Both the position numbers and the translations under genes were made by a program. Positions 12,179 through 39,851 of a stretch of DNA of 64,000 nucleotides are shown piece after piece (within the stretch, counting starts at the first letter, position 1; each line of letters opens with the position of its first letter). Source of the DNA: Promethearchaeati archaeon SRVP18_Atabeyarchaeia-1 (GTDB lineage Archaea; Asgardarchaeota; Atabeyarchaeia; Atabeyarchaeales; Atabeyarchaeaceae); the NCBI GenBank assembly GCA_037308085.1, contig CP147779.1:2400001-2464000 (forward strand), read 5' to 3'. The notes beneath the pieces are model-generated. The model worked only from the letters and a program-made list of their open reading frames with translations. It was not told the DNA's origin and made no database searches.

Positions 12179-12865
12179 TTAAGGCTGCGAGTGACCTTCG
12201 TTACTTTTCATTTCCGTTGCCGCTTTCTGGAGATAGTTCTTTCCGTATGAGCTGTAGAGAATCGCCAGAGGGTTATGTCCCGTCACCCGATCCTTGGCCG
12301 CCAAGATTGTTATGGGTGCCTTGGAGCATTTAATGAAGTGAGTATCATGCCCTACGCAGAGTCCGAGAAGTATGTTGAGTTCCGTGCCAGCTTTCTCAAG
12401 GACAAGCGCCTGTCCCACAGGATTGCATGCGCAGTATCCTATTGCGTATCCAGTTTTGGATATCCCCTGATACTCTGTAGGTACACCGACATCGCTCTTT
12501 GAGATGGCGCCAAACTTACAGTTGACTGAGCAAACCTCAAACCCCAATCCCTCGAGGAACTGGGCGACAAGCGCCGCCTCATCCTTCAGACCGACGCAAA
12601 AAGCGAGACCCAGCTTCCCATACCCCATGAGCTTGGCAAACTCGGCGATCTCGCGCAGCCTCGGCCATTCCGCGTATCCAGCTGCCTCCACGATTCCAGC
12701 ATTTACCGCCAACCTCCTCTCATCATGCTTATCATAGGCCAGTAGTGATTCCTTAACTGAGTTGCTCTGCCCAACCATAGGGCAACCCTCTGGACCCTTC
12801 CTGCTGCCTGATACGCAAGACATGGTCCTACAATACGCGCACCTCGCCGCCAACTTCGTCACCAC
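12179..12865 (-). CDS. DUF1847 family metal-binding protein
   Basis: GLAFCVGL, CNPVGQA, GLCVGHD and KDRVTGHNPLA. Confidence 0.85.
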   Translation of the reverse strand: MVTKLAARCAYCRTMSCVSGSRKGPEGCPMVGQSNSVKESLLAYDKHDERRLAVNAGIVEAAGYAEWPRLREIAEFAKLMGYGKLGLAFCVGLKDEAALVAQFLEGLGFEVCSVNCKFGAISKSDVGVPTEYQGISKTGYAIGYCACNPVGQALVLEKAGTELNILLGLCVGHDTHFIKCSKAPITILAAKDRVTGHNPLAILYSSYGKNYLQKAATEMKSNEGHSQP

Positions 12866-12924
12866 GCTTGGATCCTTCTAGTCTGAACCTCATTTTGGAC
12901 GCTTCCATATATCCGGAGTGCTTT

Positions 12925-13248
12925 GTGACGTCCTCCAACGACTGAGGTCGTTGGCTTCCACCACTTTTTTGTTCTCGCCTCGTCGCCGAGGTCGCAGGTT
13001 CGCACGTAGCTTTCAGAAGGTGTTGCAAGGTTCACGGCTCTCGAGCCCTTCACACGTTGCGGCACGGCCGTGTTGGGCAGAGGCTTGTTCATCCCGTGTT
13101 CTGGCTGCGTCAACTTTCGGCTCGTTGATTCGAGTCCAGCCCGCCCCCTCAGGGAACTTCGCCCCTTCGGGGTGCACCCAGTCTGCTGGGCTACCAGCGT
13201 TGGTTGGTGCCCCCATTGGAGACTTACGCTCCAACACCCAGGCACCCA
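12925..13248 (-). ncRNA. Unassigned structured ncRNA, copy 1
   Basis: Consecutive hairpins, GNRA loops and an A-rich linker; colinear motifs shared with 14435-14714; TATA-like box about 23 nt upstream. Confidence 0.65.
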
Positions 13249-13270
13249 TTTAAATATGCCCGCAGATAGC

Positions 13271-13278
13271 ATATAAAC
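13271..13278 (-). promoter_or_regulatory. TATA-like box inside element 1
   Basis: GTTTATAT on the minus strand, positioned like the TTTAAGTA box of element 2. Confidence 0.55.
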
Positions 13279-13671
13279 TTACAAGACAAGGGGGTTGTCC
13301 AGCCTGAAGGCTGGCACGCAATTCAACCAACCGCTGAAGCATGTTGGGTTTCTTGCTCAACCTATTTCTAAAATACCTAGCTAGAGATTATGCCAGTATG
13401 ATCCCAAGGCATCAAGTGCGTGACGCTTCGCTATTGCTCGCCGGTTGCGATGGGCTTTTCGAACTGGGTTGGATGGTAGAAGGGCACAACTAGAGGAAGG
13501 CAATCGAGGTAGCAAATGAAGGTTTGTCGTGCTCCTCTGGTTACAGTTGTTTTGAGGGATCAGTTTTGGAAGGCAAAGGCACAGGACGTTCAACGGGACA
13601 TGGGGAGTATTTCCCAGTGCGGCAACCATTAAGTAAGGGTCGGAGCTCATAATCTGAGCCGCCCCTTGATG

Positions 13672-13700
13672 TGTTACAATGTAACATAACCCTTAAATAT
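13672..13700 (+). promoter_or_regulatory. Palindromic operator plus TATA box of the tusA-dsrEFH operon
   Basis: Perfect palindrome TGTTACA-A-TGTAACA (13672-13686) just upstream of CTTAAATA. Confidence 0.6.
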
Positions 13701-13777
13701 CAGCATTAAAGCATAACTTTGATAATAGTGATGAGTTAGCGCCTAACATGATGATTGAGAGTTATGGAGAATTATCG

Positions 13778-14035
13778 ATGGCAAGCAAAACTAGCCAAAG
13801 TTCGGCCAAGGCGGATTTGGTTATCAACGCCCTTGGTCAGAAATGTCCCATGCCGATCCTGACCCTCAAAGACAACCTAGAGAGCATCAGGGTGGGTCAG
13901 ACGGCAGAACTGATCGGGGACGACATCGGCTCCAAGACAGATGTCCCCGCCTTCTGCAAGCGGACCGGCCAGGAACTTCTTAAGACTTGGGAAGACAACG
14001 GGACCCTCCATTTCCTGATCAAGAAATTGAAGTGA
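13778..14035 (+). CDS. tusA: Sulfurtransferase TusA family
   Basis: GQKCPMP motif and DD.GS..DVPAFC. Confidence 0.9.
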   Translation: MASKTSQSSAKADLVINALGQKCPMPILTLKDNLESIRVGQTAELIGDDIGSKTDVPAFCKRTGQELLKTWEDNGTLHFLIKKLK

Positions 14036-14056
14036 ACTACTCATGGCAAGTGGGCG

Positions 14057-14428
14057 GTGAACATAGCATTGGTGTCCTTTGCTTTCCTGGTCTGCACAGG
14101 TCCGTACACCTTCCAGAACTCAGATACGCTATACGCGATGATCGACGCCCTGAAGAAGCTCGGGCATAGAGTCTCGGGAGTCTTCTTCTATATCGACGGC
14201 GTCATAAACGTCTCCAAGAAAATCAAGGTAGAAAAAGGAGTCAGGGATCTGCCTGCGAAGCTTCAGCTCCTAGTCGAGAGCGGCATTCCAATTGTAGCAT
14301 GTAGCGCATGCTCGGACTACCGAGGTATAGACAATGACAATATTGCCAACGGAGCCCAACTCGGAGGACTCATGACCCTATCAGACTACATAGAGGAGTC
14401 CGACAAGATTGTGGTGTTTAGTCTATGA
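14057..14428 (+). CDS. dsrE: DsrE/TusD family sulfur relay protein
   Basis: GPY, VFFYIDGV and CSACSDYRGI with the conserved Cys. Confidence 0.8.
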   Translation: MNIALVSFAFLVCTGPYTFQNSDTLYAMIDALKKLGHRVSGVFFYIDGVINVSKKIKVEKGVRDLPAKLQLLVESGIPIVACSACSDYRGIDNDNIANGAQLGGLMTLSDYIEESDKIVVFSL

Positions 14429-14434
14429 GATCAG

Positions 14435-14714
14435 GTAACCTCTTCCCATGGCTGAAGCTTGTGGGCTTGTTTCCGTTTCGTTTGTTGGTCGCCGCCCGTC
14501 GCCGGGTCGGTGTTTCGGAAGCCACGCCGGTGGGGGGAAGTGGCGACTCCCGGGCTTTCGCGCGCCGCGCTTTTCCAGCCCGCTCACCTCGCCAGACGGG
14601 GTGGGTTACGCTTCGCGTCTCCGTGCTCGGAGACCACCCTCTGCGCCGGGAAACAGAGACTCAGGCTTTGCATTGGGGGCGCCACCCCGCGCGGTCTCGC
14701 CCCGGCGCCAATGC
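14435..14714 (-). ncRNA. Unassigned structured ncRNA, copy 2
   Basis: GC-rich and multi-hairpin; shares ordered motifs with copy 1; TTTAAGTA box upstream (about 14731-14738). Confidence 0.65.
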
Positions 14715-14803
14715 TAGGTACGCGGGAGACTACTTAAACCCGCCATTTGGCGACGGCAGTTCCTCCCACGCCTAAAAGGCGTGGGCTTCCCTGAGACAGA
14801 ATG
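14435..14803 (-). mobile_element. Non-autonomous IS200/IS605-family element inserted between dsrE and dsrF
   Basis: Left end: target TCAC, GAAG guide, hairpin cccacgccttttaggcgtggg. Right end: hairpin followed by GTTAC. Removing the element restores a short spacer TGA-gatcAGGTGAatccgt-ATG. Confidence 0.85.
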
Positions 14804-14813
14804 GTGAATCCGT

Positions 14814-21712: not shown

Positions 21713-22575
21713 TCCTAAGAATCGAGTTCAGTATCATTGAGATAGTTGTTGCTGCATAAATATAAGGAGTATTATGAATGCAAGGTATCAAACCCAAGCC
21801 CGGTTTAGATCTAGTCTTCCAGAAATCGAATCATGTGGAAGGAGTTTCGACGATATATCGATAAATACATCTTCAATCCATACCTCTAGCGCCAGAGGAT
21901 CGGTGTGTTCTATGAAGGTGGAGAATGTCAAGAAGATTGCCGTACTTGGCTCGGGGATCATGGGATCCGGGATAGCTGAAGTAGCTGCTAAGGCGGGATA
22001 CGGTGTCGCAATAACCGACACCTCAGACGAGCTAGTCAAGCACGGAATTGACGGCATCAAGGCGAGCCTCAACAGGATTGTCAATAAAGGAAAGATAACC
22101 AAAGCCGATGCTGATGCTGCACTTTCCAGGATAAAGGGCACGACCGACATGCGTAAAGCAACAGAAGATGCGCAAGTTGTGATTGAGGCGGTCACCGAGG
22201 ACATCGACTTGAAGAAAAGGCTTTTCAAGGAGCTTGACGAAACCTGCCCGAAGGAGACCGTCCTGACCTCGAATACCTCCGCTTTGATGATCACTGACCT
22301 TGCATCCGCTACCACAAGGCAGGACAGATTTATCGGGATGCACTTCTTCAGCCCAGCACAGATTATGAAGCTTGTCGAGATAATTAGGGGTGCGGAGACA
22401 TCCGATGAGACTTTTCAGCTCATAAGGGATCTCTCACTCAAATTCAATAAGGTGCCAATCGCCGTGAGCGATTCGCCGGGGTTCTTCACAACGAGATACA
22501 TTACGGCCTGCGCTGCTGAGGCAATCAGGCTATTCGAAACCAGAATCGCCGGCATAAAAGATATTGACACAATGT

Positions 22576-23717
22576 CTGACATACTCCCACAGCTAAAGCT
22601 TGTGGGGTTCTGAGGCCGTTGTCGTCCGCAACGTTGCCTCTTGGGGCGTGCCAGTGCTGCCCTCCAGCGCATCCCTGTCTACGCTGGATCGAGAGACGCA
22701 CTCATGGCGCAACGCTATGTTGAACGACGCGTTGACGTCGGCGTTCTCAACGTGTCCACACGACGGACACTTGAAGTGCTTGCCGCTCCTGGTGCCCATG
22801 TGACCGCACCTTGAACATGCCCTGGATGTGTAGGCTGGTTCAACATAGGCGACGGGTACTCCTTGCAGCCTGGCCTTGTACCCCACAAACCCCTGCAGTT
22901 GGTGGAATGACCAGCTGTTCAAAGAATACCTGAACGACTTTGCCTGCCTTCGGCTTCCGCGGATGCCTTCCAGACGTTCGAGCTTAATGCCTCTGCCAAG
23001 CGATGCAGCAAGACCAACTATCTTCCTGCTAACCTTGTGGTCGAGGTCCCTGATGATCCGGCTCTCTCTATTCTTGATCCGCTTGAGCGTCCTGTACCGT
23101 CCCTGTTTCTGAAGCTTGCGGCGGATGCACTTGTACTTCTTGTGGACGTGTTCTGCCTGCTTTCCGAGCTTCCACACTTTGCCAGTCTCTGGGTCAGATG
23201 CCACAGCAATGTGACCGGTGGTGTTGAGGTCGACGCCAACATACCCCCTCGGCTCGAAGCGCTCCTTCTCTCGGACGGAGACGCATATGTAGGCGTACTC
23301 GTTGCCTATCTCTATCTGGTTGACCGTCTCAAAGTCCGGGAAATGCTCGCACGCCAAGGCGAGTCTCAGGCATGGAATGGTTATGGTGCGCTTCTCCTTG
23401 TCCGTCTTGATGCCTTGCCCTGGCACAGTGAGCTTAATGTTCCGGACCTTCCTGATCTTCTCGTTTCTGCCGTATTTCCTTAGTATCTGGTTTGCTATGC
23501 TGGTCTTGAGGCCTATGTGCTTGACGTCTTTTGAGGAGAAGGTTCGGTGTCTGACCCCGAAGTCTGCTACCTGCCTCGCTTTCCTCAGTTCCTCGCAGAA
23601 GTCTCTGCCATGCTTGACCTTGAGGGTTAAAAGCATGTTACTATCTAAGGCTTGGCCATATTTATATTCGCCATTCATCCCACCCCTAAAGGGCGTGGGC
23701 TTTCTGGCTGATCTTTT
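22576..23717 (-). mobile_element. IS200/IS605-family (IS1341-type, tnpB-only) insertion sequence
   Basis: Target TTAC with left-end guide AAAG plus hairpin; right-end guide GAAC plus hairpin ending TCAG. No target duplication. Confidence 0.92.
22593..23636 (-). CDS. tnpB: RNA-guided endonuclease TnpB (347 aa)
   Basis: RuvC-I GVDLN, RuvC-II LERL, zinc finger CSRCG/CPSCG and RuvC-III NADVNASFNI. Confidence 0.92.
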   Translation of the reverse strand: MLLTLKVKHGRDFCEELRKARQVADFGVRHRTFSSKDVKHIGLKTSIANQILRKYGRNEKIRKVRNIKLTVPGQGIKTDKEKRTITIPCLRLALACEHFPDFETVNQIEIGNEYAYICVSVREKERFEPRGYVGVDLNTTGHIAVASDPETGKVWKLGKQAEHVHKKYKCIRRKLQKQGRYRTLKRIKNRESRIIRDLDHKVSRKIVGLAASLGRGIKLERLEGIRGSRRQAKSFRYSLNSWSFHQLQGFVGYKARLQGVPVAYVEPAYTSRACSRCGHMGTRSGKHFKCPSCGHVENADVNASFNIALRHECVSRSSVDRDALEGSTGTPQEATLRTTTASEPHKL

Positions 23718-23992
23718 GTAAGCTTGCCTTCAACTTTCCAGCTGGACCTATAGAGCTGGCAGATTTCGTGGGGTTGGACACCTTGCTTCATGTTCTTGAA
23801 TACCTGCACAAAGAGACTGGAGACCCTCACTATGCGCCCCCGCTGATAGTTAAGAAGCTCGTGAAGTCTGGCTTCAAGGGATTCAAACCTGGATCAAGAG
23901 GAGGATTTTACGAATACTTCAAGATCAAGAGGGAGCCGATGCTAAAGTGACGGAAAGCTATTCCAGTTACCTTTTCCTCTTGGCGCCTGGGC

Positions 23993-38384: not shown

Positions 38385-39851
38385 CTAGTTTGCTGGGATC
38401 TTGTTGACGCCAAACTTCTTGAGTTCCGATAGCATGCTCTTACCGAGGTCCTTCTCGAGTGCCTCGGAGACTGCCTTTTTGGCTTTTGATTTCTCCAGGA
38501 TTGCTTGTGCCTGCTCCTTTGCCCTTTTGATTATGTCTTTGCTGCCTTTTTCCTCCCATTGGCTTCTGTTTGCCCTGTCAACTACTTCGCTTGGGATGTA
38601 GTGCTCCTTTCTGAACAACCTCAAGGTGCTTGGCAGTGAAATGAAGCTCCCATTCTTGCCCCTACTCCTTAGGTCTTCCAGCGCCATCGTCTCGCTGTTC
38701 ACTTCGAAGCCCCTGGCCACACGGAGAGCCATTCCGCATATCTCGTTGTCCACAACTAGTTTTTCAATGGATTGGCAGTTCTCGAACTCGAGCATGCCTG
38801 GACCTGATATGATGTTTATTCCAGCCAGTGCCCCCAGGACGGCGCTTGCCCCAGACTCGAACCCTGCTTGGGCGTCCACGACCTTGGAATCCGACATCCC
38901 GAGGTAGGTGTGTGTTGGCAACCCAAGCCATTTTCCGATCTCGGCGTAGGCTAAGTCGATGAGTATCGTTTCCGATGCGCCCATGGGCGTCGTCCCATAG
39001 TGCATGTCAAAGGCGCTGGGTGAGCCTCCATAAACTACTGGGCAACCTTTCTTGACCGATTGTGCAAGAACGATCCCGCTCAAGGTCTCCGCAGTATGCT
39101 GTACTAGGGAGCCAGCGATCGTGATTGGACCTGTGGCGCCCATCAGTGGCATCGAGATGAGCTCGACTGGTATGGAGTACTTGGCGCAATCGATGAGGCT
39201 CTCGCTAGTTATCTCACTGAATAGAAGTGGCGGCGATGGGCAGCAGTCGAATATCGCTGTTGGACGACTTGCTAGGTTCTTGTCACCGCCGACAGCAAGC
39301 GAAAGCATGTTCTTCATGGCGAGCGTTCCATCTAACGTGAAGGTTCCAGTGATTATCGGTTTCACTGAGTGCTTCAAGACAAGGTAGAGCCGGTATCTGT
39401 CTGCAATTTCCTGCGGAATGTCGCTACAAACCAGGGCGGTGCTCTGTGCATGTATGTTGGGCAGCTCCTCTGCAACTTTGATGAACTCCACAAAATCCTT
39501 AGTAACGGGTTTCCTGGAAGCATTTGTCCTGGCATCAAGGAGGTTCAGCGCGGCTGAACCTGGATTGAAGTAGACATTGTCTCCTCCTACAAGTAGCTCT
39601 CTGCTTCCATCCCGATAGTGAAGCTTGAATGACTCTGGGCAACTCTCCACGCTGTTCTTAACTAGATCTCTTGGAAACTTGACCACTCCAGTTGGGACAT
39701 CGGCATCAGCTCCAGCACGCCCCAACGTCTCAACCGCGCGCTTACTCTTGAATATGACGCCAGTTGCGGACAGCACGTAGAGAGCGTTCTCGTAGATCTC
39801 TTCAATTGCCTCCCTTGGGAGTATCTTTATTGAGGGCTTAGAACTAGTCAA
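38385..39851 (-). CDS. Trimethylamine methyltransferase (MttB) superfamily, non-pyrrolysine
   Basis: GATGPITIAGSLVQH.AE.L.G, DSKVVDAQAG.E and EKLVVDNE; no in-frame TAG. Confidence 0.85.
   Translation of the reverse strand: MTSSKPSIKILPREAIEEIYENALYVLSATGVIFKSKRAVETLGRAGADADVPTGVVKFPRDLVKNSVESCPESFKLHYRDGSRELLVGGDNVYFNPGSAALNLLDARTNASRKPVTKDFVEFIKVAEELPNIHAQSTALVCSDIPQEIADRYRLYLVLKHSVKPIITGTFTLDGTLAMKNMLSLAVGGDKNLASRPTAIFDCCPSPPLLFSEITSESLIDCAKYSIPVELISMPLMGATGPITIAGSLVQHTAETLSGIVLAQSVKKGCPVVYGGSPSAFDMHYGTTPMGASETILIDLAYAEIGKWLGLPTHTYLGMSDSKVVDAQAGFESGASAVLGALAGINIISGPGMLEFENCQSIEKLVVDNEICGMALRVARGFEVNSETMALEDLRSRGKNGSFISLPSTLRLFRKEHYIPSEVVDRANRSQWEEKGSKDIIKRAKEQAQAILEKSKAKKAVSEALEKDLGKSMLSELKKFGVNKIPAN

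Follow-up and report, generated by a model that had tools for sequence, protein, structure and literature searches.

Protein-free IS200/IS605-type elements with a structured RNA body in an Atabeyarchaeia genome: mini-transposons of a widespread Asgard family and possible guide-RNA cassettes

What does an IS200/IS605-type element carry when it has both of its ends and no gene between them? Two such elements, here called A and B, raise this question in a 64,000-nucleotide (nt) stretch of DNA from the Promethearchaeati archaeon SRVP18_Atabeyarchaeia-1 (the window), which corresponds to positions 2,400,001-2,464,000 of a single-contig 2.81-Mb genome (G000:C1) with a GC content of about 49.5-49.6%. 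Coordinates of A and B are window positions, and those called genome positions (for example 1573219) refer to G000:C1. An earlier interpretation, made from the letters alone (the sequence-only reading), had placed both elements on the minus strand with IS200/IS605 hairpins at either end and had proposed that each carries a promoter-driven, conserved structured RNA. We found that A and B are mini-transposons of the palindrome-associated transposable element (PATE) type, members of a family with a wide distribution among Asgard archaea, and that their shared architecture resembles a guide-RNA gene from which the nuclease gene is missing. For comparisons we used two sister genomes (G001, with A-type copies, and G002, with one B copy and an empty B locus) and two covariance models: R1, made from the B copies, and R2, made from copies in G011, a genome of another Asgard family that has at least ten copies at 73-82% identity. 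The features of the two elements are listed here, with the basis of each assignment in brackets.

12925-13367, minus strand: element A, complete, protein-free, IS200/IS605-type, 443 bp (ends and hairpins read from the sequence)
13368-13372, minus strand: A target motif TTTAG, adjoining the left end (sequence)
13327-13348, minus strand: A left-end subterminal hairpin (matched by R1 as an end hairpin)
13270-13277, minus strand: A TATA box TTTATATG (sequence; kept as TTTATATG in both G001 copies)
12925-13247, minus strand: A structured RNA, about 323 nt, up to the right-end cleavage site (compensatory changes, GNRA loops, G-U pairs)
12925-13020, minus strand: A 3' module, made of clamp, GNRA hairpin, A-rich linker, right-end hairpin and end (shared with B above chance, z 5.4)
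12978-12991, minus strand: A GNRA hairpin CCUCG-GCGA-CGAGG (sequence)
12935-12954, minus strand: A right-end hairpin (sequence)
12925-12929, minus strand: A terminal GTCAC (sequence)
12905-12924, minus strand: putative guide, the flank immediately 3' of the A right end (sequence)
14435-14803, minus strand: element B, complete, protein-free, IS200/IS605-type, 369 bp (copies and ends)
14804-14808, minus strand: B target motif TTCAC, adjoining the left end (sequence)
14765-14785, minus strand: B left-end hairpin, a perfect 8-bp stem (sequence)
14731-14738, minus strand: B TATA box TTTAAGTA (TTTAA(G/A)T(A/G) kept in most aligned copies)
14435-14712, minus strand: B structured RNA, about 278 nt (10-helix structure)
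14435-14530, minus strand: B 3' module, made of clamp CUUCC/GGAA, GNRA hairpin, A-rich linker, right-end hairpin and end (R2, 25-28 bits)
14495-14506, minus strand: B GNRA hairpin CCCG-GCGA-CGGG (sequence)
14445-14465, minus strand: B right-end hairpin (sequence)
14435-14440, minus strand: B terminal GGTTAC (sequence)
14414-14434, minus strand: putative guide, the flank immediately 3' of the B right end (different in every B copy)

The ends identify both elements as transposons. Four related subterminal hairpins, one at each end of A and of B, lie in direct orientation and are matched by R1 and R2 as end hairpins; A has a second hairpin besides its left-end hairpin. The cleavage sites of the B copies show the asymmetry of IS608: the left one precedes its hairpin by 17 nt, and the right one follows its hairpin by 9-10 nt. 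The boundaries, strand and end hairpins given by the sequence-only reading were all confirmed when the sequence was read again, and the flanking sequences that it quoted as guides were correct. Its statement that tnpA, tnpB and iscB are absent from the interior also held: profiles of the Pfam type and open reading frame (ORF) checks gave no tnpA, tnpB or RRXRR/iscB signal inside A or B, and 35 TnpB proteins encoded in the genome, used as tblastn queries, returned only inconsistent matches (best E 0.029, in a tiny database). A- and B-type copies vary by frame-breaking insertions and deletions of 1-2 nt, and the elements are therefore non-coding.

These ends are shared with autonomous elements resident in the same genome, which holds three tnpA loci and about 42 tnpB loci in at least seven families. 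In its first 77 nt, A has 86% identity with an IS605 left end, that of the element with tnpA and tnpB at genome position 1573219. This IS605 has a right-end hairpin of A's type and sits after TCTAG; the target motif common to A and this IS605 is T(T/C)TAG, and relatives in G011 sit after CATAG, TACAG or GCTAG. For B, the last 60 nt or so match the right end of a tnpA element that ends at genome position 1955202, and the left-end hairpin resembles the left ends of IS1341-type tnpB elements, with 87-90% identity along 29-31 nt. The window contains one tnpB element of this type:

22560-23720, minus strand: IS1341-type tnpB element with B-like end hairpins and an unrelated 3' RNA region (sequence comparison)

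T(T/C)AC or N-TCAC precedes all nine B copies that have a left end (seven full copies and two minis), and the resident tnpB elements with a matching target motif are those at genome positions 1948250 and 1960031, both after (A/T)TCAC, together with the IS605 at 1573219. By their ends, the spacing of their cleavage sites, their lack of genes and the ends that they share with autonomous elements, A and B are non-autonomous IS200/IS605 elements of the PATE or miniature inverted-repeat transposable element (MITE) type.

Further genomic copies, on which the sequence-only reading had staked its proposal, are present in this genome, in its sister genomes and across Asgard archaea, where R2, matching mainly the 3' module, identified relatives in 13 genomes from six families out of 151 sampled. 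A is single-copy here and has two copies at 85-86% identity in G001. B has eight full copies at 73-85% identity plus two minis of about 150 bp in this genome and one copy in G002, where the orthologous B locus is empty and its spacer diverged; a clean empty-site joint was not found in the public DNA runs that cover the A/B region. The minis (G000:C1 1319875-1320034 and 1306474-1306621) consist of a left end and a right-end module and have no RNA body, so the ends alone persist or get mobilised. At 24 related loci in ten other genomes, examined by tblastn with the TnpB and TnpA proteins of this genome, tnpA or tnpB lay between the ends in none (0/24), and an unrelated tnpB was within 1.5 kb at only two. 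Two motif patterns were also scanned: a degenerate pattern run over genome contigs gave chance matches only, in high-GC bacteria, and a stricter 3'-module pattern run over 400 Asgard genomes found only G011 and G069 and was too strict, missing even the B copies.

The covariation of the family supports a conserved structure on the minus strand, as the sequence-only reading had claimed. For B alone, 93% of cells pair in the 10-helix structure compared with 37-47% when the partners are slid, and seven pairs show double changes, a result reached by 0 of 500 shuffles. In an alignment of 35 sequences, 89% of cells pair compared with at most 51% when slid and 39 of 54 pairs are changed on both sides, with the observed values again reached by none of 500 shuffles; this alignment was fitted to the structure model and its sequences are related, and the covariation must be read accordingly. 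Covarying helices include the clamp, the GNRA hairpin (one pair of which is CG in 16 sequences and UA in 16) and the end hairpin. A compensatory change of U-A to C-G is seen in the inner 5' stem when the three A-type copies are compared (UUGGAG/CUCCAA versus UCGGAG/CUCCGA). Frequent G-U pairs and GNRA loops occur on the minus strand only, which is the transposon top strand. The GC content of the RNA is 57-62% for A and 62-70% for B compared with about 49.5% for the genome. Folding z-scores of the single sequences were not significant (A -1.1, B +0.2) and are uninformative for GC-rich RNA. The idea of an R-loop formed by a G-rich RNA strand found no support, the GC skew being about 0.

A TATA-like box is found inside the left end in every copy, which bears out that part of the sequence-only reading. 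For A, the box compatible with the RNA start is TTTATATG and not a TTTAAAT that stands directly next to the first stem. The distance of about 30 nt from TTTATATG to GGGUGCC would place the start of the A RNA near 13247. Two B copies have variant boxes, TTTGAATG and TTTAGATA, and in elements with the same left end the place of the B box is taken by the tnpB promoter. Among the public runs with this region there is one RNA library, a wetland metatranscriptome (X6), and it yielded a single 179-nt contig at 13029-13207 that matches without differences. This contig, the sole RNA contig on 12700-15000, lies inside the A RNA and does not reach its 3' end; it is weak evidence of transcription, because contigs from RNA libraries can hold DNA. 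The elements contain no T-run or internal terminator, and read-through past the right end would therefore be expected. Downstream of A, read-through would enter an ORF of 228 aa (12179-12865, minus strand) in sense, and from B it would run antisense to an ORF of 123 aa (14057-14428, plus strand) that stops 6 nt from the right end; an effect on either is possible.

How far are the two RNAs the same RNA? The sequence-only reading had inferred homology of the interiors from a series of features in the same order, and this inference is not borne out. The 10-mer GCGGGCTGGA is indeed identical at 13135-13144 in A and 14574-14583 in B. When the A core was compared with the B core, neither global alignment nor collinear k-mer chains did better than dinucleotide shuffles (z 0.04-1.09), and R1 scores A at only 6.7 bits, mostly across the 3' end. 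GCGAAG and CGAAAG, which had been taken for conserved junctions, vary even among the three A-type copies, and MAFFT with intermediates from another genome put the 10-mer of A in a different register from that of B. The listed motifs are present, yet they are no more than expected by chance in GC-rich sequence. Statistical support is confined to the last 80-95 nt, which are alike above chance (z 5.4 against shuffles). Scores of R2 are 25-28 bits for the B copies and 11-14 bits for those of A type, and neither group is matched outside model positions 215-293. This stretch comprises the clamp helix CUUUCC/GGAAAG, a GNRA-type hairpin, the A-rich linker and the right-end hairpin. The data support the view that A and B have a common 3' module and a similar layout, with a lineage-specific 5' part of about 200 nt. 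The G011 elements combine one and the same core with a 3' module of either the A-like or the B-like type. An nhmmer profile built from these copies did not reach A or B, and a joint model of B and G011 copies built from MAFFT was dropped because the alignments were out of structural register. By eye, a possible pseudoknot pairs the 3'-terminal hexamer with an internal complement (GUAACC/GGUUAC in B, GUGAC/GUCAC in A and its relatives), and the complement sits at different positions by lineage.

A and B have a common plan: a hairpin marks the left end, an archaeal promoter sits 70-95 nt farther in, a top-strand RNA of 280-320 nt follows and closes with the 3' module, and there is no internal terminator. 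Since there is no terminator, transcripts should cross the right-end cleavage site and gain about 20 nt of flank. Such a layout would be that of a TnpB omegaRNA (reRNA) gene minus the nuclease gene. We hypothesized that the RNA of A and B is a mobile, stand-alone guide-RNA cassette that acts in trans and is kept by homing, with a putative nuclease partner, and we judge this hypothesis to have an even chance of being correct. The three Y1 TnpA enzymes encoded elsewhere would move the elements, and a nuclease, also encoded elsewhere, would load the RNA in trans; the likeliest candidate would be a TnpB from a family with the element's ends and target motif. By re-cutting the empty donor site, this nuclease could preserve or spread the element. 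The end geometry of IS608, the shared ends, the target motifs matched by resident tnpB elements, the kept TATA box, the covariation and published precedent all speak for a guide cassette. So do the G-U pairs and GNRA loops on the top strand, the occurrence of the family in 13 sampled genomes, the RNA-library contig inside A and, in G040, elements with the same left end that carry tnpB.

Several results weigh against it. Scaffold kin to the omegaRNA region was not found at any of the 42 tnpB loci, the end-sharing families included, and blastn, nhmmer and both covariance models match only the end hairpins at these loci. The sequence-only reading had set the interiors against the TnpB element of the window and seen no resemblance to its 3' region, and the same is true of every other tnpB locus of the genome. 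Local alignment of the RNA bodies with end-sharing tnpB elements from three genomes, in the 3' regions of the latter, gave scores equal to those of shuffles (z -1.0 to 1.1). For A and B alike, their own tnpB family gave no higher score than did the other families and the reverse-complement controls. The tnpB elements of G040 and G011 show no scaffold likeness either. A nuclease gene lay inside none of the 24 related loci (0/24), so these loci revealed no ancestral parent that still bears a nuclease. The omegaRNAs known to act in trans are similar to the scaffold that a resident effector uses, and the A/B RNA is not.

Some candidate relationships were followed without success. A match between A and the 3' region of the IS605, GGGCUG...CAGCC...GGGAUGAAC, is tempting but is not above shuffles. 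Left-end-only matches in G011 and a fragment at genome position 428635 had no nuclease gene, and the left ends of the G011 tnpB elements differ from those of the RNA-only elements. A divergent tnpA/tnpB pair at genome positions 1955200-1957000 was considered as a parent with its nuclease on the opposite strand and was set aside, as its boundaries could not be resolved. At this locus (L230, G000:C1 1955100-1957010) the 5' ends of tnpA (minus strand) and tnpB (plus strand) overlap at a palindromic TATA-rich stretch, and a right-end-type hairpin follows each gene on its own strand; the arrangement may represent two interlocked elements or, alternatively, a divergent IS605-like unit.

The lack of likeness to any resident omegaRNA region would also be expected if the RNA were cargo rather than a nuclease guide, that is, a regulatory RNA, a component of a ribonucleoprotein or an undescribed ribozyme riding on ends that TnpA mobilises. 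We consider this unlikely. It accords with a family that is protein-free throughout six Asgard families and with 5' parts of about 200 nt that differ among lineages while each lineage keeps its own helices. However, no Rfam family, including the HEARO and ribozyme models that had been thought of from the sequence, matched A or B on either strand at E values up to 10. The best-conserved module abuts the right end, as a guide scaffold needs, and without a terminator the insertion site sets the 3' end, which would be odd for a free-standing RNA gene. A related explanation, which we regard as doubtful, is that A and B belong to an old, self-standing Asgard lineage of RNA-only transposons that uses TnpA for spread only, its RNA being no trimmed TnpB omegaRNA but a separate scaffold class that serves an unlinked effector or acts alone. 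If it acts alone, the RNA may be a ribozyme or a regulator; if it has an effector, IscB-like proteins may be one candidate by co-occurrence.

It is also conceivable, although distinctly improbable, that the hairpins work mainly as single-stranded DNA (ssDNA) during TnpA transposition, that the promoter is an outward-reading mobile promoter and that the RNA has no function beyond effects on neighbouring genes. Covariation cannot tell RNA from ssDNA folding because TnpA acts on the same top strand. Read-through in sense from A and in antisense from B, into the two ORFs described above, would suit such a promoter, and so would the existence of minis that lack the core RNA. Recognition by TnpA, however, needs no more than the end hairpins and short guide tetramers, and a GC-rich, multi-helix body of 200 nt is not required for it. 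GNRA loops, many G-U pairs, the kept TATA box and a GC level that exceeds the genome value by 10-20 points mark a structured RNA, and the one RNA-library contig covers the A body. The conserved promoter and the high GC content favour RNA over ssDNA.

A further explanation, which we think very unlikely, assigns the RNA to IscB/IsrB-like (RRXRR) nucleases instead of TnpB, as an accessory or alternative scaffold. Proteins of this type occur in 14 of the 151 genomes, namely in 9 of 13 RNA-positive and 5 of 138 RNA-negative genomes, a co-occurrence well beyond expectation that is uncorrected for kinship and TnpA subtype; among the 25 TnpA-positive genomes they are found in 6 of 7 that are RNA-positive and 2 of 18 that are RNA-negative. 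The RNA-positive genomes cluster phylogenetically into about four independent lineages, however, and a shared TnpA subtype may explain the association, given that the IscB, TnpB and RNA-only elements of G040 all have the same end hairpin. The initial 60 nt of the G040 RNA-only elements recur in tnpB elements. One left end of this kind is found about 50 nt upstream of tnpA, and none is at a listed iscB position; the tnpB elements of that genome close with an omegaRNA region of the short canonical form, which goes unrecognised by R2. HEARO, the RNA of IscB elements, is read from the opposite strand, with its start at the right end and its guide at the 5' side. The HEARO model misses A and B on both strands while finding the iscB-linked RNAs of this genome (37-71 bits) and of G040 (121-135 bits), and R2 finds nothing in the HEARO regions beyond the end hairpin. 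In this genome three IscB/IsrB-like ORFs (L190, L191 and L192; G000:C1 774.6-775.7, 793.3-794.8 and 817.2-818.3 kb) have the HEARO-like RNA 3' of the ORF on the same strand, with scores under the Rfam cut-off of 83, whereas G040 has the canonical order with HEARO 5' of the ORF.

That the interiors are decayed tnpB coding sequence with an embedded omegaRNA, a view already rejected by the sequence-only reading, is effectively refuted: the B promoter lies where end-sharing elements have their tnpB promoter and there are isolated short identities such as CGAGACCGCG, common with one tnpB family, but the tblastn matches are inconsistent, Pfam shows no TnpB signal inside, nucleotide similarity is not above shuffles and the helices are under purifying selection across genomes.

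Apart from A and B, the minus strand of the window matches the Rfam family PYLIS_3 (the mttB pyrrolysine insertion element) at 38798-38897 with 44.9 bits, above the gathering score; the organism probably encodes a pyrrolysine-containing methyltransferase.

The proposal of a new system is not supported, since A and B are of a kind already published. PATEs often encode omegaRNAs that are used by TnpB in trans, for example in Geobacillus stearothermophilus (Meers et al. 2023, PMC10055086), and a further source summarises stand-alone omegaRNAs that are mobilised without effector and transposase and work in trans (Altae-Tran et al. 2021; PMC10691335). Like PATEs, A and B are protein-free, have hairpin ends in common with resident tnpA/tnpB elements and would be mobilised in trans. 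Unlike PATEs, they have a longer RNA (280-320 nt) with its own promoter and without likeness to the omegaRNA regions of resident tnpB elements, and they are RNA-only across several Asgard families. As with the stand-alone omegaRNAs, the A/B RNA loci are mobile, lack effector and transposase, and sit in genomes with effector loci; those omegaRNAs, however, work with effectors whose omegaRNA they resemble, whereas for A and B no compatible effector can be named by scaffold.

Comparison with RNAs embedded in complete elements gives a similarly mixed picture. Like the TnpB omegaRNA or reRNA of IS605 and IS1341, the A/B RNA is on the top strand, would extend to the right end with the hairpin included, has the flank as its presumed guide and shares a target motif. 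The canonical omegaRNA overlaps the 3' end of tnpB, whereas A and B have no coding overlap and a different body, and their 3' module of clamp and GNRA hairpin was not found beside any tnpB gene. Like HEARO (RF02033), theirs is a large multi-helix RNA in an IS200/IS605 element, in the same genomes and with the same type of end hairpin; HEARO differs in its opposite strand and its 5' guide, and its covariance model misses A and B. What is new is the RNA body unrelated to resident omegaRNAs, the covarying 3' module and the broad, gene-less distribution.

If the RNA of A and B is truly a trans-acting guide, guide-RNA genes live as independent mobile units in Asgard archaea, with scaffolds that have diverged past recognition from those embedded in tnpB elements, and this would bear on how guide and effector genes became separated en route to CRISPR-like systems. 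If no TnpB uses it, the elements represent a widespread, undescribed family of structured RNAs carried by a transposon. In either case the conserved 3' module provides a covariance-model handle with which to search for the partner.

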